Below, piece after piece: positions 1,997-64,000 of a stretch of 64,000 bases of DNA. A program made the translations under genes and the position numbers. Source of the stretch: a virus (Duplodnaviria > Caudoviricetes); IMG/VR virus record IMGVR_UViG_3300014203_000001, positions 32,001-96,000 of that record; one strand, 5' to 3'. Within the stretch, counting starts at the first letter, position 1. Each line of letters opens with the position of its first letter. The notes beneath the pieces are model-generated. The model saw only the letters and a program-made list of their open reading frames with translations, had not been told where the DNA came from and ran no database searches.

Positions 1997-3049
1997 TTAT
2001 ATACGAGTGATCTGGTCTTTTATATTTTCTAATTTAACACCAAAGTCTTTTTCGTTAGGGAATACATTGCGATGTAAATAAACCTTTATTCCTATAGGAG
2101 TTACTAGATCTGCAACTGCCTTTATCTGTTCTTCAGGAACGTCGTTATCCATATACAAATGGAGTTCACAATTAATTATTCCCATCCCAGATAATATAAG
2201 ATTTATTACATTAAGATACGATCTACCACCTATAGACATATAAATATTTTGTTCTCTATTTCCATTATTAAGATTATAGAAGATTGATAAGATATCAAAT
2301 GGACCCTCTGCAATATGAATCTTAATCGGAACCAAAGACATAAGATTACATTTTGTTGGTATAGAGTAAAATCTTCTAGAGTTGTTTAAAGAATCTTTGA
2401 ATATACTGTAGTTAGTATATCTACGATCTATGAACTTACTAACACAGCCTTTCTTCCTTAGATTCTTTAGATTAATGAATCCATTATCCATAGATAAGAA
2501 TCCCAAAAAGCTATCGTCTAGTTCTTTCACTATATTATCATACATCGTATACTCTTTTATCTTATTAGAGTTTAATAGATCTAATAAATTAAGAACAATC
2601 TTATTCTCTAACAGATCACTATAAGTAAGATCTAAACCAAGTCTTTTATTTATATAGAATAGTTTAGCCTCACTTAACTTATCTTTCCTTATATAATTAT
2701 TATATACTTTATAAGTCTTATTTTTCCTCATTCGGTTCTTAGAGAGCTTAACTGTTTTTGTATTATTGTCTCTAAGATCACATATCATTTCTCCGTCTTT
2801 ACTACAGTCTACAAGGCTCATCAATACATCGGGAGTTAGAATTCCTTTAGTACTACACTTAAAACAATAGTACATTGGAGGTACATTATTTACTTCATCG
2901 CCTAATGATATATACAGATGCCGTGCATTATGATCTGATTGGCTATCTCCACAAAATCTACATCTAATAGCAACTTCTGCCTGCCCTGATGCGGTTCGTC
3001 CATCGTTAAATTTTCTTAATAAAAAATCTCTTAGTTTGTCTGCAAACAT
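1997..3049 (-). CDS. DNA primase (Zn-finger + TOPRIM)
   Basis: CRFC...CFKC zinc finger; IAEGPFDILS and YMDND TOPRIM motifs; C-terminal KDFG. Confidence 0.85.
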   Translation of the reverse strand: MFADKLRDFLLRKFNDGRTASGQAEVAIRCRFCGDSQSDHNARHLYISLGDEVNNVPPMYYCFKCSTKGILTPDVLMSLVDCSKDGEMICDLRDNNTKTVKLSKNRMRKNKTYKVYNNYIRKDKLSEAKLFYINKRLGLDLTYSDLLENKIVLNLLDLLNSNKIKEYTMYDNIVKELDDSFLGFLSMDNGFINLKNLRKKGCVSKFIDRRYTNYSIFKDSLNNSRRFYSIPTKCNLMSLVPIKIHIAEGPFDILSIFYNLNNGNREQNIYMSIGGRSYLNVINLILSGMGIINCELHLYMDNDVPEEQIKAVADLVTPIGIKVYLHRNVFPNEKDFGVKLENIKDQITRI

Positions 3050-3231: not shown

Positions 3232-4833
3232 TTAAATCATTAATGAAAACATTAATATCTCTTCACATATAATCTCTGGAACAGCTGGAGCTGGAACTAC
3301 CACTCCGTGTAATTCTGAGTTATAGAAATCGATATTTTTGAATTCTGACGCTAAAATCTGAGCTATTATCTTGGATAGATTTTGCTCATATATTTTAGGA
3401 TTGCGATACTTATTTACTACTTTAGGATAATTATCAGACAACATTGTTCGTTGCATGATCTTCTTATTGACGGTCTTTCTTGTTACGAATCTGCTTATCT
3501 TACCACCGATTACAAATGGTAGTAATTTTTGACCCTCTAAAATTAATTTTCGTTTAGCAGATATCATAAGAATTATATACTCATCATCATTTACCATTCT
3601 CACAGCCTGAGTATCATAGAAATATCTCTGAAACAAATATGCTACAAGATTTTCTTGAAAGTCGTTTCTCAATGCTTTCCCATCAGCAGTTAGTTCCTTT
3701 CGATAGAAATCTATTTCTTCTTTAGAGAAAGGTCCATACTCTTCTATGATTCGACGCATTGTTGTTGTAGCATTGACGTTAACTTGAAGAAGCATTGCTT
3801 CATCTTGTTTAGTCATATGAGCTTCAAACTTATCAATCTCACTATTGTTATCGTCATCTCTGTTAGATGAGGATACTGTGGTTAATGCATACTCATATGG
3901 AATATCAACAACTTTATATTTGATATCCCTATTAATAGCATCTAGGTTAAAACATATTACACTTTTAGAATATATATATTTAGGAATGATTTGGACTATT
4001 ATATCCTCTACTGTAGCTATAGAATGTATGGTTGGGTTTCTCGCTCTAATATCTTGCATTCCCCATAATCCACTATCCGAAATAGTAGATTGGTTTACTT
4101 TAGTCCGAGTAGTTTCTAATAGCTTAGAATACATATTTACCCTATACTTGTTTAGAACCATGATAAAAATCCTATCAAATACTCTCAAGAGAACTCTTTT
4201 GATATCTATAGGATTGTACTTCCTGGTATAAATAAAATGGGCTAATAATGGTATGATCATATTTTGTAATAATGAGATCTCCATAAATATAGTAGCATGA
4301 TGCTTACTATATTCTAAACAAGGATTATTCTTATTCTTATAATCAAATTCGATATAATAATTTACATCATTCATACACGATATTTGATAGTGAATAATAG
4401 GAGAAGACTTATAATCAATTATATATCGCACTAGATCATTAAGTAAGTTATCTTCACTATAGTTTTCTCTATAGTCGATCAGATACTTGATCTGTGCCAT
4501 TAACCCTAGTAATACATGCCCCCTATCAAAGAATTTCTCGAAATAATTTAGATACGTTGTATTATGCTCTCGAAATCCAATTGTTAGGTTTCCCTCTTTG
4601 TTAATTTTGGTTTCGCTATTATAGCAACGTTTTGATGACATCATAAAATAATTTATATCGCTATTATCTGGCATACCGTATAAGGGAGCTATATTCGCAT
4701 ATATAATTCCCTTACTGTGTTTGAATATTAGGTCGTCTGGGCTGGGAACCCAATTATCCACTAGTATTTTCTCTGGGACTGGAACTCGTTCGACTATTTG
4801 TACAAGCTTTTCTTTACTCTCTGCATTTATCAA
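3232..4833 (-). CDS. sigma-like promoter-specificity subunit of non-virion RNAP (AR9 gp226-like)
   Basis: Blocks match AR9 gp226 as recalled: SKRCYN, LQNMIIPLL, SDSGLW, IIPK...SVI, DDDNNSEIDKFE, C-terminal EEILMFSLMI; early promoter upstream; close to the chaperonin gene as in AR9; likely TTG start at 4833 after GGGGAGG. Confidence 0.8.
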   Translation of the reverse strand: MINAESKEKLVQIVERVPVPEKILVDNWVPSPDDLIFKHSKGIIYANIAPLYGMPDNSDINYFMMSSKRCYNSETKINKEGNLTIGFREHNTTYLNYFEKFFDRGHVLLGLMAQIKYLIDYRENYSEDNLLNDLVRYIIDYKSSPIIHYQISCMNDVNYYIEFDYKNKNNPCLEYSKHHATIFMEISLLQNMIIPLLAHFIYTRKYNPIDIKRVLLRVFDRIFIMVLNKYRVNMYSKLLETTRTKVNQSTISDSGLWGMQDIRARNPTIHSIATVEDIIVQIIPKYIYSKSVICFNLDAINRDIKYKVVDIPYEYALTTVSSSNRDDDNNSEIDKFEAHMTKQDEAMLLQVNVNATTTMRRIIEEYGPFSKEEIDFYRKELTADGKALRNDFQENLVAYLFQRYFYDTQAVRMVNDDEYIILMISAKRKLILEGQKLLPFVIGGKISRFVTRKTVNKKIMQRTMLSDNYPKVVNKYRNPKIYEQNLSKIIAQILASEFKNIDFYNSELHGVVVPAPAVPEIICEEILMFSLMI

Positions 4834-4890
4834 GTAATCTTCCTCCCCTTTATAATAAAACATATGTTATTTCATATACGTGAATCACCT

Positions 4891-4911
4891 CCACATATAT
4901 AATATATAACC
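4891..4911 (-). promoter_or_regulatory. early promoter
   Basis: GGTTATATATTATATATGTGG. Confidence 0.7.
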
Positions 4912-5685
4912 TTATTTTCTTTTTGTTGTTTTAGTATACTTGGTTGCTTTGGTAGATTTTACATTGCTTTTTGCCTTTGCTTTGATAGCATACATCGTAC
5001 TCTTAGCTACTAAAGTGCTACCAGTGTTCTTTGGACCTCTACTCTTCTTTATTTCTGGTAATGGTTTCTTTTTACTTAGATTCTCACCCGCAGCTTGTCT
5101 AGCTGCCACCTTTTGATCTGCATGGTCTATCTCGAATAGAAGAGCTTCTTTAGAATATGTTTTAGTTTCCCCTAGCCAAGCTACTTTCTTATCCAATCCT
5201 TTTAGTTTGATATATAGGTATGCAAAGTAAATTTGTTTTACGTATCCTATTACATCCTTAGGGTTCTTAATAACCGCTTTATCAGTCAAAGCTTTACTAC
5301 TCATTTTCTCTTTAAGATCTTCAATAAACATCTTATTCTTATTGAATGCATGAGCATGGGTAAATACAAATGCTGGATCGTTAGAGAAGAATTTAGTCTC
5401 ATAACTGTTTAGATTATTCTCAGCAGCTACTGCTGTATTGGAAGTAATATACTCAATTACCACATCATAGTAAAATTTACCAATTAATTCCGACGGGATT
5501 TTAAGATGGATAAGATATCTCTTATCGCTATCTTTATATAGAGTATACATTATTCTACCAGCATCTCGCACTAATACAGTATCGAACTTCTGCGTATAAA
5601 GATCTTTATATACTCCCCGTTGGCTATATACTGCATTGTTCTTACCCATAGGGTTCTTTATGTATTCATCGAAAGTCATAATCAT
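4912..5685 (-). CDS. hypothetical protein with Lys/Thr-rich basic C-terminus
   Basis: 257-aa ORF with RBS. Confidence 0.6.
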   Translation of the reverse strand: MIMTFDEYIKNPMGKNNAVYSQRGVYKDLYTQKFDTVLVRDAGRIMYTLYKDSDKRYLIHLKIPSELIGKFYYDVVIEYITSNTAVAAENNLNSYETKFFSNDPAFVFTHAHAFNKNKMFIEDLKEKMSSKALTDKAVIKNPKDVIGYVKQIYFAYLYIKLKGLDKKVAWLGETKTYSKEALLFEIDHADQKVAARQAAGENLSKKKPLPEIKKSRGPKNTGSTLVAKSTMYAIKAKAKSNVKSTKATKYTKTTKRK

Positions 5686-5937: not shown

Positions 5938-7674
5938 CTACTCTGGGTCGATATATACATTGTATTCTGGAGCTTCACATAAATATTGGTTCGTACTGAT
6001 AACAAGACCAATGATTTTACTAATAGCATCTAGAATAACTTGGTCTGATTTGATAGTAGAAAGTACAGTATTATCAAATTTCTCAGTTCTAATATTTAAA
6101 GGACACCCATTAGCTAAACACTCCAACGCTGTCAGAATAGACTGTGTTTTGTCTTCTCCACAATGAATGAAGTATAAAGAAGATACTAATTCAAGATACA
6201 CTTTGTTTAGAGTAGTATAGATGCTAAATGCTTCTTCATTTTGTATTTTAGTATGCTCTTCTTCGCTTAGTGATTCCATTTCTAATTTTTCTAATTCATT
6301 AAATGCACGGAAAGCTTCAAAGTTAGCGCCAAATCCAGTACCATCTTTAGCGGCACTACGGCAATTCAATACAGCATCTTCTACTAGATCTCTAAGAGCA
6401 TCTCTATCGTTCATAGAAATACCACCTACCAGATAATCTACCATATTAGCTTTCAATGAATTGATACGACGTTTTAGTGTACCCACTTTAACGATATCTT
6501 CTTTAGCTTCTTCATACTTCTCAAGCATCATTTGAAGCCCATCAATTAAACCATTATATGTATCAGACTTCTCTCCATCCTCATTGAACATCAACTTTGG
6601 ATTGATAATCTTTGTCTTTAGATTATCTGCTTCTACAAGATCAGCATATCCTGCGAAGTTATGTACAGTGTCTGGAGTTGCAGCTAATCCATTATCAATA
6701 TCCATCTGCTGTAGAGTAGGATCGATGTATTTCTTAATAGGTTTAGCCCCACTAATAATAGCCAAATCTGATAAAACATCACCATCAAAGATATTTGGAA
6801 TTACTAATAAAGGTGGACGCATCATAGGTTTAATATTAGTAAGCTGGGTTACAATATTATCCATCATGGCGTTCATATCTACTGAGATTTTAGGGCAAAA
6901 GATAACAGTAGGAACGATATTAGTTTTATCGGCAAAGATATTATCATACATGATCTTATCTAAGAATACACTCATCTCTGGAGTATCGATAGGATCTTCA
7001 AATACATAGATATTAGCTCCTCTAATAGATGCCACTTTTCGTTCGGTATTATTAATGAAAGCTGGATCACAATATCCTTCTTCGATAGTAAAACCATCAT
7101 ATACTTTCTTTACATTGTTAGGAGAATTAGAGATACCAACATCGATGAATACTTCCATACCATTTTCTTTATAGATATCTGAAAGATTCTGTGCTACTTC
7201 TTCATTACCATTGGTAGAAATCATAGCAATCTTATAGATATCATCTACAGTAGTTTCCTTTTTATTAGAGTCGATAATCTTAATAGCTTTTTCAATAGCT
7301 TTCTTAAATTGTTTTACTAACTCCAATTCAGAAATACCATATTTCTCGTGAGCTGTTTTAAGAGCATCGAAGATTAGATAAGATGCTTTAATAGCAGACG
7401 TTGTTCCGTCACCAATCGTACTAACAATACGAACAGTAATATCTCTAAGATCATCGCGCATAGTTTGCTCAATAGGTTTATTGAACTTGATATCACATAA
7501 GATAGTATGACCATCTTTAGTATATCTAGCAACATCATTCTTCTTACGAATAGCTGTTGTAGATCCGTTAGGACCGTAGGAATTAGTCAAAGCTGCATCT
7601 AAAATCTTTAATGCATTTAATTGTGCTTCTCTTGTTTGTTTCTTAGGAATAATGTTAGTATATACTTGTGTCAT
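5938..7674 (-). CDS. phage GroEL-like chaperonin
   Basis: SYGPNG, YTKDGHTIL, GDGTTSA, LVEDAV motifs; 578 aa. Confidence 0.92.
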   Translation of the reverse strand: MTQVYTNIIPKKQTREAQLNALKILDAALTNSYGPNGSTTAIRKKNDVARYTKDGHTILCDIKFNKPIEQTMRDDLRDITVRIVSTIGDGTTSAIKASYLIFDALKTAHEKYGISELELVKQFKKAIEKAIKIIDSNKKETTVDDIYKIAMISTNGNEEVAQNLSDIYKENGMEVFIDVGISNSPNNVKKVYDGFTIEEGYCDPAFINNTERKVASIRGANIYVFEDPIDTPEMSVFLDKIMYDNIFADKTNIVPTVIFCPKISVDMNAMMDNIVTQLTNIKPMMRPPLLVIPNIFDGDVLSDLAIISGAKPIKKYIDPTLQQMDIDNGLAATPDTVHNFAGYADLVEADNLKTKIINPKLMFNEDGEKSDTYNGLIDGLQMMLEKYEEAKEDIVKVGTLKRRINSLKANMVDYLVGGISMNDRDALRDLVEDAVLNCRSAAKDGTGFGANFEAFRAFNELEKLEMESLSEEEHTKIQNEEAFSIYTTLNKVYLELVSSLYFIHCGEDKTQSILTALECLANGCPLNIRTEKFDNTVLSTIKSDQVILDAISKIIGLVISTNQYLCEAPEYNVYIDPE

Positions 7675-22750: not shown

Positions 22751-22762
22751 TATAAAAGTGTT
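22751..22762 (-). promoter_or_regulatory. late promoter
   Basis: AACA CTTTTA TA. Confidence 0.7.
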
Positions 22763-31894: not shown

Positions 31895-32334
31895 ATATAA
31901 AAATAAGAGGAATTGAAACTGAAATTGAATGTGATGAAAAAGTTTACTTTGCAGATGAGGAAATTATGTATCATCAAGTACTGAAAGATTCTCAAGAAGC
32001 TATAACTAATGACGATCTAGAAAAATTAGAAGCATTTTATACAAAATATAAAGCGTATGCTGATGCAATCGAAGTTATAATACTCCAAGATCAAAAAGAG
32101 TTTGAAGAGAATGGTCCTTCTCTAGAAATTGAAAATAAAATAGATATGGAAAATATGACTCATAAAGAAGTTATCCAACACTGTAAAGAGCAATTAGAAG
32201 AGATACCAACTGCAGGTAAGATATATAGAACTATTAGATCTACAGTTAATACATATATGTGTTTTACAGGTCGTCCAATGTTAGGGGAAACACAGGAAGA
32301 ATTTGATGAATGGGGTGAATATAATGAAGATTGA
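31891..32334 (+). CDS. acidic protein, paralog B (candidate antitoxin)
   Basis: CDEKVYF...TVNTYMCFTGRPMLGET. Confidence 0.6.
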   Translation: MNIKIRGIETEIECDEKVYFADEEIMYHQVLKDSQEAITNDDLEKLEAFYTKYKAYADAIEVIILQDQKEFEENGPSLEIENKIDMENMTHKEVIQHCKEQLEEIPTAGKIYRTIRSTVNTYMCFTGRPMLGETQEEFDEWGEYNED

Positions 32335-54552: not shown

Positions 54553-55560
54553 TTGAAAGAATATTTTAGAGCTGCTATAACAGAGCATATGGATATACAA
54601 GATGAAAAGACTAGAAATGTTATTCTTAGTCTTAATGAACAAGATCAAGATAGTGTATTATTATCTTTGACTGGCAAATTGTATCAGATGATTGTAGATA
54701 AAGTTGATGATATTGACTTTGGTGATATCCCTGATACTAAAGGAGATATCGAATCTCTTCCTGCTTATGACAAGATTGTATCTAGTATTGAAACCCTTAG
54801 AGCTATATTAGAACAATATAAACAACCAACAGAAAGTATTGATACTATCGACAATGCATTATCCAACTTGGTAAATCATAAAGATTTATTTAAGAGAGGG
54901 TATATGGCTAATATCGAACTTATTCAAGTTACTTATTGTGAAGTGGCATTAGCTATTGTTAATAGTATTTCATATATGATTGCTGCTACTATTGACTTTA
55001 TTAAGAATCCTAGCGATGAAGGTTTTCAACTTTCATTTACTAGAACAGGATTGGCTAGAACTAAAGATTCTCTAGTATATTCTAACTTAGTTAAGTTTAA
55101 TGAAGCATGTAGACACAACCAATTAGAGAATGCTTTTGATCCTCTAATCAAAGCTAGAGTTAAAAACTTTACTGGATTAGAAATTGGAGCTATTGCTGGT
55201 GGTATTGCTGTTGCGGGTATTCTGTTAAACATTTTACCTATTCTACGAGAGCTAACTTTCTTTTTTTATGCTACTCGTACTAGAATTAGCCAATACTTCG
55301 ATCTTCAAGCAGATTTGTTAGAGATGAATGCTACTGCTATTAAGAACAATGATATTAGAACAGTAGATGATAAAGGTAAAGTTGTTAAACGTCAAATGTC
55401 TATTGCATCTGGGTTCCGTACATTATCTAATAAGATTTGTATTACTCATGTTGCGGCTGAGAAGGATACTCCTAAAGCTATTAAAGCGGAGAATAAAAAA
55501 ATGAAAATCGATGATGTTGTTGATACTATGCCAGATTCAGCAGCTCAATCATTGTTTTAG
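54553..55560 (+). CDS. virion protein with hydrophobic segment
   Basis: LNEQ motif; IGAIAGGIAVAGILLNILPIL. Confidence 0.55.
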   Translation: MKEYFRAAITEHMDIQDEKTRNVILSLNEQDQDSVLLSLTGKLYQMIVDKVDDIDFGDIPDTKGDIESLPAYDKIVSSIETLRAILEQYKQPTESIDTIDNALSNLVNHKDLFKRGYMANIELIQVTYCEVALAIVNSISYMIAATIDFIKNPSDEGFQLSFTRTGLARTKDSLVYSNLVKFNEACRHNQLENAFDPLIKARVKNFTGLEIGAIAGGIAVAGILLNILPILRELTFFFYATRTRISQYFDLQADLLEMNATAIKNNDIRTVDDKGKVVKRQMSIASGFRTLSNKICITHVAAEKDTPKAIKAENKKMKIDDVVDTMPDSAAQSLF

Positions 55561-59395: not shown

Positions 59396-61264
59396 TTATT
59401 TTCTAAACAGATTCATCATTTTATTAGTAGCCCACTGGTCCATGCCACCTGCCAAATCTGTATATACTTTATCAGTAAATTTGTTTCTAAAATACTGAGA
59501 ATAGTAGAACATAGCAGTTCTCTGTAGATCAGGTTCGTTGATATTGACACCGCATAGGTTGCCTATATAGTCCATCAAAGTTATATTGCTTAGTACGCCA
59601 TTGGATATATTTTTATTTGTCGTGATAGCCATTGTTCCGTATAGTTCTTTAATGGTGAAATTTACATCTACTATTGTTGGCAATCCACTAGCCGTCCAGC
59701 TACCTTCTTGCCCTTTGGTAATAGACATACTTGATATAATTCCCATATCACAATTAAATAGACCTTTATATGATCCTCTAACTAAGAATGGGGAAACATA
59801 TCCATTTGGTCCTACCGATCTAGGGCATACAAATCCTACTAGATGTAATATAGGAACTATTATATTTAAATATATACTATAGTCATCGCAATCTGGAGAG
59901 ATAAGTTTTAGATGGACACTATAATCTCTTGAGAATTGCGAATCGTTCCATATCTCTGGAAATATTAATTTACCACCAGCTATTACTGTGTTTACTCCAC
60001 TCATTATACCACCAATAAGATTACTAACAGATCCACCACTAGCTCCCAATATCTTACCAGTCATAGAATCTTTATTCTCTTGGCTTCTGCCTAATGCTTT
60101 TTCTTGACCAAATGCATCAAATTGTTGACCAGCCATTGCTGAAGAAGTACCCATTAAGAAATTTATTTCTCTACCCATTTCGGATATACCATTTACTTTT
60201 CCTGCTATTGCAGATTGACCTGTGCTATTAGAGAAAGAATCTCCTATTTGAGTATCTGAATTTATATAGAATGCCATACCGCCTTTGTAATTTAAAATTC
60301 TATGTATTTCTTCGTTATTATTATCTTGCCACGAATAGTTATTTAATTCTTTATCAAAATATTTCCTATCACCTATACCCATAATTTGTGCAGCTGCTCT
60401 ACACATTGGATTTACATGGTTAAAATATTCAGTCCAATTTAACTTTAACCCATAGTATTTTCCTTTACCATTTAATAATTCATCTAGTTCAGACTTGGTT
60501 CCAGTAGCAGATCCAAATAAGTCTATCATATAATTTACTAGCTTTTCCTTTGAATCTTTATCATACCCAGCTAGAAATTCTGGAGTCCCTGGAGTCAGTA
60601 TAAGGAGAGGAATTCTGGCGACTATTTTCTCTGCATATTTTCTGCCAAAAGATGAATATTCATCCCCATCATCTATTCTTCTATCTGCTATTGACATATA
60701 CTGATACGGCATACCAAATATACCCTTAAGTGATTTTACTCTAAGTCCATTCAATTCAGCTGATATTGTTTGTGTATTTGTATTAACAATGCTAGATGTA
60801 GAAGTATTAGAAGTTATCCAAGTTTTATCCTTTTCAGTTGCTGCAGCAGTAGCACTTTCAGATACATCAGAACTAGCTGTAGAATATGCTATAATAGAAG
60901 ACAGTGTAACCCAATATGTTTTTTCTCCACTCTTTATCTGAATCTTCTCAGCTGATTCGACAACAGTCACTATGAATATAGCATCTGTTTCAGCTATAGC
61001 ATCACCATTAATAGTTACTGGATTGGTTAGTTTCACAGTCGTTCCAACTTCTATTTTAGTATCATTATTTCCTATTTTAACTGCTATTAGAGTAGAACTA
61101 TTTGCATATCCATAAGCCCATCCGTTTTGTGTATGATACCAGCCATTTGTTATTTCGCTAACTAGAGTATTAGCATTAGCTGCTAACTCACCCATAATTT
61201 GAGAATCCATTGTGCAATCTGATCTTAACGAAACATCTTTGGTAAATTTATATACATCATTCAT
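59396..61264 (-). CDS. baseplate/tail-tube cap protein (gp48-like) with SH3-like N-terminus
   Basis: SRDYSV..KL, YVSPFLV, GLPTIVDVNFTIKEL; late promoter at 61292-61303. Confidence 0.5.
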   Translation of the reverse strand: MNDVYKFTKDVSLRSDCTMDSQIMGELAANANTLVSEITNGWYHTQNGWAYGYANSSTLIAVKIGNNDTKIEVGTTVKLTNPVTINGDAIAETDAIFIVTVVESAEKIQIKSGEKTYWVTLSSIIAYSTASSDVSESATAAATEKDKTWITSNTSTSSIVNTNTQTISAELNGLRVKSLKGIFGMPYQYMSIADRRIDDGDEYSSFGRKYAEKIVARIPLLILTPGTPEFLAGYDKDSKEKLVNYMIDLFGSATGTKSELDELLNGKGKYYGLKLNWTEYFNHVNPMCRAAAQIMGIGDRKYFDKELNNYSWQDNNNEEIHRILNYKGGMAFYINSDTQIGDSFSNSTGQSAIAGKVNGISEMGREINFLMGTSSAMAGQQFDAFGQEKALGRSQENKDSMTGKILGASGGSVSNLIGGIMSGVNTVIAGGKLIFPEIWNDSQFSRDYSVHLKLISPDCDDYSIYLNIIVPILHLVGFVCPRSVGPNGYVSPFLVRGSYKGLFNCDMGIISSMSITKGQEGSWTASGLPTIVDVNFTIKELYGTMAITTNKNISNGVLSNITLMDYIGNLCGVNINEPDLQRTAMFYYSQYFRNKFTDKVYTDLAGGMDQWATNKMMNLFRK

Positions 61265-61333: not shown

Positions 61334-64000
61334 TCACCTTGCAATGATAGCCTGCATAGAATTTATGATACTTTGAGTATCTTTACCAGCCATTAGATCA
61401 CCTGTTCCATTAGTACTTCCATTTCCAGCTGTAGATAATTTACTCATTATAGAAGCCGCTGGGTTGGTAGCATTCTGCTGGGTAGTACTATTAGCAGTAG
61501 CTGGTTTAGTTTGAGCACCAAGAGCTGTTGCTATTGAAGTTAATAGAGCAATCATAGTATCGAACTTAGCTCCATAATCTGCTCCACCAATACTAGCAGC
61601 AGAAGTGGCAACCTTAGCTAATTGTTGTTGTGTTTGAACTAGACTTTGGGCTGCTTGGGTTACGGCTTGAGTTGACTGTGTAGGTTTGTTAATATCAATA
61701 ACATTCTTCTCTACTTTATTAACAATGGAATTTGGTTTAGGAGTATCTTTTTTATTGTTATTAACTAGAGAATTCTTATCATTTAATAGATTATTCACGA
61801 TAGAAAGTTTATCTTTGTTTGGGTTTGTTACAGAGTTATCCGTTGGCTTATCCGATACAGGAACGGATTTAGCTAGTTCTGCATTTTTAGCATTCTTAGC
61901 AGCAATAACATCATTGGAATCTCCAGGCTGTATTGCATTGTAATCAGCTGTGTCATCAGTACTATAATTAGAATCCGTAATGGCTCTGGATTTTTCAATA
62001 ATAGCTTGATATTGATCTGGATCTTCAGTTGCCAGTTGAGCTAATGCGTCTGCCATTTCTCCTGCTTTGGAAGTATTATCATATTCGCGGTTCATATATG
62101 ATGCTACCTCTTCAGCACTATATGCAAATGCACCTTTACCATATTTCTTAGATCTGCCATACTTGCCTTTAGCATTTTTGGCTTTCTTATTAGCTCCAGG
62201 TAAGTAATTACCGATACCGAATTTGCCTAATCCGTACTTACCCGCGCCAGTTTGACTACCAGGTCCTGCTTCTGCTGCTACGTCTATTCCGTTTGTTTTC
62301 GCGCCACTAACAACATTAGCATTACCAGCACCAGTAGAAACGTAACCCCAGATCTTATCTGCTCCCCATGTATCTGCCATTGGACCATGTTTTACTTTTA
62401 GAGTACTAGATGAATTACCGAAGAACCCACCTTGACCATCTGCAATAACTGCATGATCTGGACCGTCAGCTTCAGTCATATTATTATTAGTATCTACTAA
62501 AGCTATATCTCCTTCAGCGCCACCCTGTGATGCTTCTTTCCATAGACCAGATGATTTAGCCTGATCTTTAAGAGTAGGACAATATAGATCCATTTGATCA
62601 GCGAATGGATTTCCTGCATGTTGCAGATAGTCTTTAGCAAATGCGGTACAGCCATTAGGACCGTATCCTTGCGGTTGATCGCTAGATACTAATTGATTAG
62701 CCCAATCCGAAGCCTTTTTAATTCCTTCGTTTGTGCTACTAGAAGTGAATGATCCATTGCTAGAACTAGAATTATTTTTGGAACCATCAGTTTTCTTTTT
62801 GGAACCGAATATACTAGAGAATGGATTATCGTCGCCGAATATAGTTTTTATAGTACTGTCTCCGAACATTTTACTAGCCGAACTCATGATGTTACCTGCT
62901 AGTGGTTTAAATGCTCCCTGTACACTTCCTGCTAATTGTTTAGCTTGAGCTATAGCTCCATCTAAGAAACTACCAGAACTGGCAGTAGTTGCTGCGGCAG
63001 GTGTAGTCGCTGGAGTCGCTGCAGCGGGGGTTGGTGTGGTTGCAGGAGGAGTTGTAGTATCGGCAGGAGCAGAAGATGTTAATCCGTCTGGACCTCTTCC
63101 CCATTTACCTTTACCCCCACTAAGATCTAAAGCACCACTCATTACACTAGATAATTCAGCCAGCTTACCAAATAATCCAGTATTCTTTGGTTTGTTAGAT
63201 CCAGAAGATGCAGTACCACTAGTTCTTTTACCAAATTTAGAACTATCAACTAGAGAGGTATCATACTTTCCTGGTATTTGTGCTATACCTGCTGATACGC
63301 CATTTATATATTCATCTACACTAGCTCCATAATATCCATTATCTTTAAGAGCCTGTGCAAATTCTGGTACAGAATTGGTTCCTATTACACCGTCACATTT
63401 TTTAATATATCCAGCATAATATTCAGCCCATTCCTCTGGAGCGCCAAAGTGCATATAATAACAAGTTCCATCTGGTTGTTTGTCAGCTGGATCTCCTGTA
63501 GGTTGACTTTGTGTCATTCCACCGAAATTATAATTTTCTTTAGCTAATCGACTAGAAAATCCTCCACTCTCATGATACCATTGACCATATACAAACTCAG
63601 GCTTGAGTCCTATCTTTTCACTAACCCAGTTAGCTAAAGCCCACATATGTTCTGGGTTTAAATCTCCACCTCTTCCCCATTTACCTTTACCTGATTTGGT
63701 TTTAACAGGGTCATTTTTGGAGGCGATATGAATATCATGGCTATACCCCATACCATATTTACCTTTACCACTCTTTTTCTTATTGGCTCCAGGTAAGTAA
63801 TTACCGAGACCGAATTTGCCTAATCCTTTACCAGCAGCTATAGCCATAGAGGATTTATTTAGAACATCACTAGCTTTATACACTTGATCTGGTGTTGTAG
63901 ATTCTGGATCTTGTACTGTTATATTACCTTTTCCATCCATTCCAGTTCCTACTACATAGTGATTGTATTCACCGTATGGATTTTTAGAATTAACACCTTT
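61334..64000 (-). CDS. C-terminal part of a large tail / tape-measure lysin (end of C39-like peptidase, GH73 glucosaminidase, CHAP/NlpC-like amidase)
   Basis: Frame open to window edge (NHYVVGTGMD..G.I.VQDP); QWYHESG..NFGGM..LKDNGYY; NGCTAFA...GDI...DHAVI. Confidence 0.75.
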   Translation of the reverse strand, partial: KGVNSKNPYGEYNHYVVGTGMDGKGNITVQDPESTTPDQVYKASDVLNKSSMAIAAGKGLGKFGLGNYLPGANKKKSGKGKYGMGYSHDIHIASKNDPVKTKSGKGKWGRGGDLNPEHMWALANWVSEKIGLKPEFVYGQWYHESGGFSSRLAKENYNFGGMTQSQPTGDPADKQPDGTCYYMHFGAPEEWAEYYAGYIKKCDGVIGTNSVPEFAQALKDNGYYGASVDEYINGVSAGIAQIPGKYDTSLVDSSKFGKRTSGTASSGSNKPKNTGLFGKLAELSSVMSGALDLSGGKGKWGRGPDGLTSSAPADTTTPPATTPTPAAATPATTPAAATTASSGSFLDGAIAQAKQLAGSVQGAFKPLAGNIMSSASKMFGDSTIKTIFGDDNPFSSIFGSKKKTDGSKNNSSSSNGSFTSSSTNEGIKKASDWANQLVSSDQPQGYGPNGCTAFAKDYLQHAGNPFADQMDLYCPTLKDQAKSSGLWKEASQGGAEGDIALVDTNNNMTEADGPDHAVIADGQGGFFGNSSSTLKVKHGPMADTWGADKIWGYVSTGAGNANVVSGAKTNGIDVAAEAGPGSQTGAGKYGLGKFGIGNYLPGANKKAKNAKGKYGRSKKYGKGAFAYSAEEVASYMNREYDNTSKAGEMADALAQLATEDPDQYQAIIEKSRAITDSNYSTDDTADYNAIQPGDSNDVIAAKNAKNAELAKSVPVSDKPTDNSVTNPNKDKLSIVNNLLNDKNSLVNNNKKDTPKPNSIVNKVEKNVIDINKPTQSTQAVTQAAQSLVQTQQQLAKVATSAASIGGADYGAKFDTMIALLTSIATALGAQTKPATANSTTQQNATNPAASIMSKLSTAGNGSTNGTGDLMAGKDTQSIINSMQAIIAR

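Follow-up and report, generated by a model that had tools for sequence, protein, structure and literature searches.

A gp226-like RNA polymerase subunit with glycine at the AR9 V206 position in an uncultured jumbo-phage clade with thymine-type gene content

The non-virion RNA polymerase (nvRNAP) of phage AR9 is the textbook polymerase that recognizes its promoter via deoxyuridines in the template strand. Here we describe a homologue of gp226, the promoter-specificity subunit of this enzyme, encoded in a 64,000-nucleotide stretch of viral DNA (the window) that spans positions 32001 to 96000 of a 245,713-bp IMG/VR record (IMGVR_UViG_3300014203_000001; labeled G000 below), such that a window coordinate is the G000 coordinate minus 32000. 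G000 has direct terminal repeats, is rated 100% complete, and has a G+C content of ∼32%; the whole analysis was carried out in silico. RNA polymerase (RNAP)-encoding jumbo phages have been described as two groups, one nucleus forming, with thymine DNA and TATG late promoters, and the other AR9-like, with uracil DNA and AACA-N6-UA promoters (PMC7598289, PMC13282480, PMC7618050). According to reviews up to 2026, it is uracil that keeps jumbo phages without a nucleus from transcribing host DNA (PMC7598289, PMC13282480). We found no paper describing an AR9-type factor and promoter in combination with a thymine gene set.

In AR9 gp226, a distance of 3.9 Å separates the V206 C-beta from C5 of the uracil at -10, and a V206G mutant accepts -10U and -10T equally. 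This valine is absolutely conserved among close gp226 homologues of phages with deoxyuridine-containing DNA (dU-DNA). The -11 uracil is discriminated otherwise, via packing against the DNA backbone, and V206G does not relieve this requirement. Further, Y210 stacks on -9G, and the N-terminal domain of gp226 also binds the complementary, non-template AACA-like segment (all from PMC9209446). A first-pass annotation of the window noted a glycine at the position of V206 and proposed that the factor is a natural specificity switch that reads thymine promoters on a thymine-DNA genome. The features concerned are as follows.

3232 to 4863, minus strand: gene for the sigma-like nvRNAP promoter-specificity subunit (AR9 gp226 homologue), from homology, fold, and synteny
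4069 to 4071, minus strand: Gly265 codon, aligned with AR9 gp226 V206 in four alignments
4045 to 4074, minus strand: predicted recognition helix SGLWGMQDIR, residues 264 to 273, counterpart of AR9 helix 2.1bis, from DSSP on an AlphaFold2 model and column statistics

We consider it moderately probable that the relevant change lies at the level of the clade, with AR9-type late promoters being read on thymine DNA, and that Gly265 is not the switch. The glycine at the V206 position is real, but alone it is an ordinary tip-level variant.

The minus-strand open reading frame (ORF) at 3232 to 4863 runs for 543 amino acids (aa) from an ATG at 4863 and contains STISDSGLWGMQDIR. Residues are numbered throughout on this 543-aa form; Gly265 is residue 255 when counted from a TTG start at 4833 (see below). 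PHROG 25005 ("RNA polymerase") covers residues 60 to 530 (E value, 1e-11), and a tblastn search against 50,697 phage records matched only the gp226 genes of AR9, PBS1, and near-identical relatives. Pairwise BLASTP to AR9 gp226 (from KU878088) gave an E value of 4e-13, with 23% identity over 85% of the length. Because phmmer against PDB sequences found nothing relevant for this protein, and with no family for it in Pfam, kinship with gp226 was reached through tblastn, PHROGs, and fold comparison. The AlphaFold2 model, built with 37 homologues (mean pLDDT, 83.8), has the two-domain helical fold of gp226. Its best Foldseek matches in the PDB were 7s01_A and 7um0_A, which are AR9 gp226 in the holoenzyme (E value, 4e-13), and VIA-align superposed it on AR9 gp226 with a Z score of 26.9 over 428 residues, the global root mean square deviation of 18.8 Å reflecting domain orientation. 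In this structure ranking, AR9 gp226 was followed by phiKZ gp68 and then, only at a Z score of ∼4, by bacterial sigma region 2-3. The only nvRNAP core subunit searched for, beta-N (AR9 gp105 homologue), was found at G000 232220 to 233995 (30% identity; E value, 7e-47). The first-pass assignment of the gene to the AR9 gp226 type thus stands on both homology and fold, and these comparisons identify its product as the sigma-like fifth subunit of an AR9-type nvRNAP.

The placement of the glycine was also borne out. SDSGLW forms residues 262 to 267 (window 4063 to 4080), with the Gly codon exactly where the first-pass annotation had put it, and the AR9 sequence that it gave, SDVVIW at residues 203 to 208 with V206 as the second Val, agrees with KU878088; the role that it assigned to V206 and the acceptance of thymine by V206G are confirmed by PMC9209446. 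G265 fell under V206 in BLASTP, in MAFFT (122 sequences), in L-INS-i (16 sequences, including the five cultured phages introduced below), and in the family-HMM alignment. All four alignments are anchored by an invariant Trp (W208 in AR9, W267 here) two residues downstream.

We identified 267 homologues (E value, ≤1e-3) among 90%-identity clusters, all metagenomic and with 40 to 67% identity, and 79 further loci in IMG/VR, many of them on contigs of 200 to 340 kb. Below, labels of the form L0xx denote IMG/VR loci with a gp226-like gene, and G0xx denotes large related genome records. Across 120 aligned homologues, column 265 contained V (45), I (33), T (20), K (6), Q (4), M (3), P (3), R (2), D (2), G (1), and S (1), with an entropy of 2.43 bits and a beta-branched residue in 82% of sequences. 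Around this variable position the helix hardly changes: the columns of L266, W267, M269, Q270, and R273 had 0 to 0.31 bits, and I272 is likewise nearly invariant in the clade. Gly recurs in separate lineages of the wider set (L034, L037, L054-57, L058/59, and L083).

The five cultured dU-DNA phages with a gp226 homologue (AR9, BpSp, LPJP1, S6, and phiR1-37) have the helix Y-[SKN]-D-x-V-I-W-x-[YF], with an invariant V206. The whole helix differs in the metagenomic clade, whose consensus is N-N-x-X-L-W-[DE]-M-Q-x-I-R and in which the Tyr that stacks on -9G in AR9 (Y210) is replaced by an invariant Met; the G000 helix, I-S-D-S-G-L-W-G-M, does not fit the signature of the dU subgroup. In a quick maximum-likelihood tree (IQ-TREE; SH-aLRT support only, no bootstrap, long branches flagged, LPJP1 left out), 51 metagenomic rows were split from AR9, BpSp, S6, and phiR1-37 by a branch with 99% SH-aLRT support, and G000 was sister to L006 (I) and L028 (V) with SH-aLRT of 100. 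From this distribution in the alignments and the tree, G265 is a recent, lineage-specific, tip-level substitution of the usual V or I at a tolerant position.

In many relatives (L058 to L083; e.g., L058 at 2947 and 4020 and L064 at 2887 and 5156), two separate ORFs make up the gp226-like gene, one of ∼300 aa for the N-terminal part and one of ∼200 aa for the C-terminal part, with 1 to 2 kb between them. By analogy with the interrupted genes of AR9, the interruptions are probably intron or homing-endonuclease insertions.

Because the clade has genes for making dTTP (ThyX, a Tmk homologue, and dUTPase), thymine DNA is most likely, and judged by its gene content G000 very probably has thymine DNA. 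G000 encodes a 444-aa ThyX homologue (PF02511, 90 bits), a trimeric dUTPase (TIGR00576, 103.8 bits, just over the cutoff of 102.55 bits) in which both motif V at the C terminus (RMGGLGSTGK) and GIIDSDYYG are present, and a thymidylate-kinase (Tmk) homologue (PF02223, 44 bits) whose gene has the same orientation as thyX and lies two genes upstream of it.

G000 119088 to 121531, plus strand (outside the window): string of tmk, a 146-aa ORF, and thyX, from profile matches

Phages with dU-DNA have a PF00383-family dCTP deaminase and a dT-nucleotide hydrolase (Li et al. 2025, PMC12697855); the dU-DNA biosynthesis sets of PBS1, phiR1-37, and DSS3_VP1 consist of Dcd, Dtm or Dtt, and Ugi (PMC12697855). 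In G000 we found no match to ThyA, to a PF00383-family dCMP/dCTP deaminase (Dcd), or to a Ham1-type pyrophosphatase (PF01725, Dtt type). The five cultured gp226 phages served as controls. All five have a PF00383-family deaminase gene, and among those scanned only phiR1-37 has a match to the pyrophosphatase; ThyA, ThyX, and dUTPase had no match in any of the five, Tmk had none in AR9, phiR1-37, or S6, and AR9 had no blastp homologue of G000 thyX, tmk, or dut. The thymine and uracil gene sets were mutually exclusive in G000 and the cultured gp226 phages, with G000 on the thymine side. A tblastn search with AR9 Ugi gave a best E value of 1.6 in G000, although Ugi is small and fast evolving and other inhibitor families exist. 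The thymine-DNA genome proposed in the first-pass annotation is therefore supported at the level of gene content, with the ThyX/Tmk/dUTPase set present, Dcd and Ham1 unmatched, and the reverse in the five cultured phages; of the genes that it had named for a search, thymidylate synthase (as ThyX) and dUTPase were found, and Ugi gave only the match noted above. Two other markers proved unusable or uninformative. PF06941 (NT5C), tried for the PBS1-type dTMP phosphatase, had no match even in AR9, and a uracil-DNA glycosylase (UDG) gene, tried as evidence against uracil DNA, was absent from all five genomes searched.

The same pattern extends to 41 large related records. ThyX of the same long form was present in 29 of the 41, ThyA in 10 others, and dUTPase in 25, while the deaminase was found in only 7, 6 of which also have a thymidylate synthase; the seventh is G018, with a dUTPase and no synthase match. 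All of the Val-bearing records (G002 to G008, G032, G037, and G038) carry a thymidylate synthase; thus, within this clade Val does not point to uracil DNA, and a thymine lifestyle does not depend on Gly. Only G018 (L035) and G039 (L080) had no match to ThyX or ThyA, and in G018 the dUTPase adjoins a 430-aa ORF with a dCMP-deaminase domain; these two may rely on a host synthase or have a different base chemistry. The ThyX proteins of the clade range from ∼390 to 580 aa, and in them a large insertion separates the N-terminal part of the Pfam domain from the C-terminal part.

To these gene sets we compared late-promoter-like motifs. We counted AACA-N6-TA in intergenic DNA, 5 to 60 nucleotides (nt) upstream of a start on the same strand, using a crude gene call. 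G000 (G at the V206 position) had 27 such sites, G003 (V) 22, G011 (K) 18, and AR9 (V), the positive control, 49; in G000, other spacings gave 4 to 8 sites and permuted cores 3 to 12. Sites within the window are as follows.

22751 to 22762 (G000 54751 to 54762), minus strand: AACA-N6-TA late-promoter-like site, 17 nt upstream of a start codon, from the motif
G000 59624 to 59635, 80635 to 80646, and 93292 to 93303, minus strand: other AACA-N6-TA sites, from the motif
G000 62199 to 62210, plus strand: other AACA-N6-TA site, from the motif

Genome-wide, AACA-N6-TA was depleted relative to the N4, N5, N7, and N8 spacings in G000 (193 versus 243 to 293), G003 (125 versus 182 to 235), G011, and AR9, which is consistent with counterselection of spurious late promoters within genes. 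When one position was freed at a time, with the control spacings as background, -10 (A), -9 (C), and -8 (A) remained specific in all four genomes. Position -11 was strictly A in AR9 only; in G000, the observed counts against control were 19 to 10.2 for T, 5 to 1.8 for C, and 4 to 0.8 for G, and G003 and G011 had the same non-A excess. The relaxed position is the one whose uracil need in AR9 comes from backbone packing and is not relievable by a side chain. Residue 265 did not covary with the -10 base, which was A (template T) whether the residue was G, V, or K. The core and spacing of the AR9 promoter persist whatever the residue at 265. As a side observation, the beta-N subunit of G011 (161878 to 163554) has Ala in place of R363, the Arg that in AR9 gp105 stacks on the -10 base; -11 is the most relaxed in G011, which also has Lys where AR9 has V206.

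In the model that we favor, the phage belongs to a large, dTTP-making clade of uncultured phages that is sister to the dU-DNA phages. The gp226-like factor, with a split beta/beta' core, would direct late transcription from (A/N)ACA-N6-TA promoters by analogy with AR9; on the AR9 model, the template strand would be read as 3'-(T)TGT-5' by helix 264-273 together with the beta-N subunit, whose base-stacking R363 (AR9 gp105 numbering) is kept in G000 and G003. The clade would have either adapted its -10 pocket to thymine or never specialized this pocket for uracil. Acceptance of thymine at -10 would come from the remodeled helix (D204N, I207L, Y210M, and the new M-Q-x-I-R) and the relaxed -11, and favorable contact with the thymine methyl might even come from the residue at the V206 position, which is mostly beta-branched. 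G265 would not be required, although it may give the pocket still more room, as V206G does in AR9. The homology, the fold, the alignment of G265 with V206, the gene content, the motif enrichment, and the column variability were observed directly, and from them we infer the thymine DNA, the template-strand reading, and the pocket geometry.

Several observations weigh against the clade-level model. The clash in AR9 is with the C-beta of V206, which is present in every non-Gly residue, so if the pocket geometry were strictly conserved, the V, I, and T siblings should reject thymine; the model therefore needs a change of pocket geometry. In beta-N, G011 has Ala in place of R363 and the alignment shows no conservation of K375, such that the pocket may be built differently altogether. 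G000 ThyX has RHF where its relatives (G003 and G011) have the canonical RHR, and the P-loop of G000 Tmk is degenerate (EGLDCSFKET; compare EGMDCSYKET in G003 and the canonical EGTDGSGKTT in G011), and from these motifs ThyX or Tmk could be impaired or repurposed in G000 itself. Moreover, uracil and thymine are indistinguishable in sequence, and the promoters are predictions from motif statistics.

The alternatives differ in where they place the discrimination between uracil and thymine. It is quite unlikely, in our judgment, that G265 is a functional switch as the first-pass annotation held, with an ancestral V or I that excludes the thymine methyl and a V-to-G change that permits thymine promoters. 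Such a switch would agree with the alignment of G265 to V206, with the thymine-type look of the genome, with the recurrence of Gly in the separate lineages listed above, and with the ability of V206G alone to make AR9 nvRNAP accept -10T (PMC9209446), but the same mutation leaves the -11 requirement, set by the DNA backbone, in place (PMC9209446). The distribution of the residue does not support the claim: the same thymine-type clade has V, I, or T in 98 of 120 sequences and Gly in only 1 of 120. The closest sisters, L006 and L028, have I and V, and they and many other phages with V, I, T, or K share the ThyX/dUTPase set without Dcd. G003 and G011 likewise carry ThyX and dUTPase, and with V and K, respectively, they use the same AACA-N6-TA motif.

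The near invariance of L266, W267, M269, Q270, and R273, as for a functional recognition helix, speaks against a different proposal, in which recognition by the clade works on the purine-rich non-template strand (AACA), through N-terminal-domain pockets, or on duplex DNA, and residue 265 makes no base contact. With either mode of reading, uracil versus thymine in the template strand would no longer matter. The proposal draws on the binding of a non-template AACA-like segment by the N-terminal domain of AR9 gp226 (PMC9209446), on the tolerance of K, Q, R, D, and P at residue 265, and on the replacement of the -9G-stacking Y210 by an invariant Met, but it sits poorly with the 82% of beta-branched residues at 265 and with a motif spacing and core that are the same as in AR9; overall, we regard it as unlikely. 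Least credible, and in our view highly improbable, is that the genome is made of uracil DNA or contains a thymine-derived hypermodified base, with ThyX, Tmk, and dUTPase serving otherwise and an unmethylated C5 needed at -10. All AR9-type promoters described so far come from dU-DNA phages (PMC7598289), and the noncanonical ThyX (RHF) and Tmk P-loop of G000 would suit this explanation. Yet a dUTPase with motif V and GIIDSDYYG would destroy the dUTP pool, G000 has no Dcd, Ugi, or Ham1 match and no ThyA-type hydroxymethylase, the relatives have a canonical ThyX, and the five cultured gp226 phages do without ThyA, ThyX, and dUTPase.

The surroundings of the gp226-like gene also resemble those in AR9, with the gene order chaperonin/g227/gp226-like/primase equal to the AR9 order and all genes on the minus strand.

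5938 to 7674, minus strand: GroEL-like chaperonin, syntenic with AR9 g228 (PF00118, 65 bits; blastp to AR9 g228, E value of 2e-37)
4912 to 5685, minus strand: 257-aa AR9 g227 homologue, between the chaperonin and the gp226-like gene (blastp E value, 3e-30)
1997 to 3049, minus strand: DNA primase, AR9 g225 homologue, downstream of the gp226-like gene (blastp E value, 1e-23; AR9 annotation)
4896 to 4910, minus strand: early (virion-RNAP type) promoter-like motif GTTATATATTATATA, just upstream of the gp226-like gene, from sequence

The motif GTTATATATTATATA is similar to the early promoter annotated before AR9 g226, and because this early-type motif sits directly upstream, we take the gp226-like gene to be an early gene. 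Early-promoter-like motifs precede ∼50 genes of G000. They form a composite, (G)TTATATATTATATA-(A/G)(A/G)TGAGCAAT...ATTGCATC, which joins an AR9-like early promoter to a conserved GCAAT/ATTGC hairpin located downstream, at the transcript 5' end; sites include window 4896 to 4910 (minus strand) and ∼50 intergenic positions (e.g., G000 3163, 17189, 30280, and 50486). The real start of the gp226-like gene is probably the TTG at 4833, which gives a protein of 533 aa. This TTG lies 7 to 8 nt after AAAGGGGAGGAAG (GGAGG Shine-Dalgarno box), and the database representative, P0003, is of the same length (533 aa); the annotation would probably be more correct with its start at this codon. The stretch at 4831 to 4863 (minus strand) holds the strong Shine-Dalgarno box as GGGGAGGAAG, ahead of TTG 4833.

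We see an even balance on the broader claim that the whole of this widespread uncultured clade of AR9-like jumbo phages combines the AR9 template-strand -10 code and a gp226-type factor with thymine DNA. If this is true, the clade comprises hundreds of protein clusters and dozens of complete genomes of 200 to 340 kb. Its members would encode an RNAP and have neither uracil nor a compartment, the two described means by which such jumbo phages distinguish their own DNA from that of the host, which raises the question of what stops so short a promoter from acting on host DNA. The cultured dU phages would then have added the dependence on uracil in their own lineage, or else the acceptance of thymine would be a single change at the level of the clade. 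The residue at the V206 position alone cannot predict uracil or thymine DNA, and the content of Dcd versus ThyX, ThyA, and dUTPase separates the two groups much better. The natural variants that the clade offers at this position (G, V, I, T, K, Q, R, and P) make up a panel for testing what sets the discrimination between uracil and thymine and how the -11 constraint was relaxed.

Among the known systems, phiKZ gp68 (the fifth nvRNAP subunit; PDB 8QUE and 9RJS) belongs to the same family as the gp226-like protein, by Foldseek (E value, 2e-7) and by a Z score of 12 for the C-terminal domain, with no phmmer match between the two. phiKZ is nucleus forming and has thymine DNA, as G000 very probably does, and its late promoters are TATG at the start site without a -10 AACA element (PMC7618050), unlike those here. 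The phiKZ proteins chimallin (gp54) and PhuZ (gp39) had no phmmer or tblastn match in G000, G003, G011, or AR9, in a search of low sensitivity that also missed the gp68 link, which is a weak indication that the clade is without a phiKZ-type nucleus. Compared with the dU-DNA sets of PBS1, phiR1-37, and DSS3_VP1, G000 has no detectable marker, and the opposing pathway is present.

The closest counterpart is gp226 of AR9/PBS1 (PDB 7S01, 7UM0, and 7UM1; Fraser et al. 2022, PMC9209446), which has the same fold, neighborhood, early-type promoter, and AACA-N6-TA core and shares the recognition-helix Trp (W208/W267) and beta-N R363. In the G000 protein, V206 is replaced by Gly (a position that is variable in the clade), I207 by Leu, and Y210 by the invariant Met, a new M-Q-x-I-R-x-R-N motif is present, and the protein is ∼70 to 80 residues longer; in addition, -11 is relaxed, ThyX, Tmk, and dUTPase stand in place of Dcd and Ugi, and the DNA is probably thymine DNA. 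The AR9 V206G laboratory mutant (Fraser et al. 2022) has Gly at the same position as the G000 protein. In the mutant this is a single change in a U-specific background that still needs U at -11, whereas the helix that carries the Gly in G000 also differs at most of the remaining contact positions, and the Val-bearing members of the clade are apparently on thymine DNA too.

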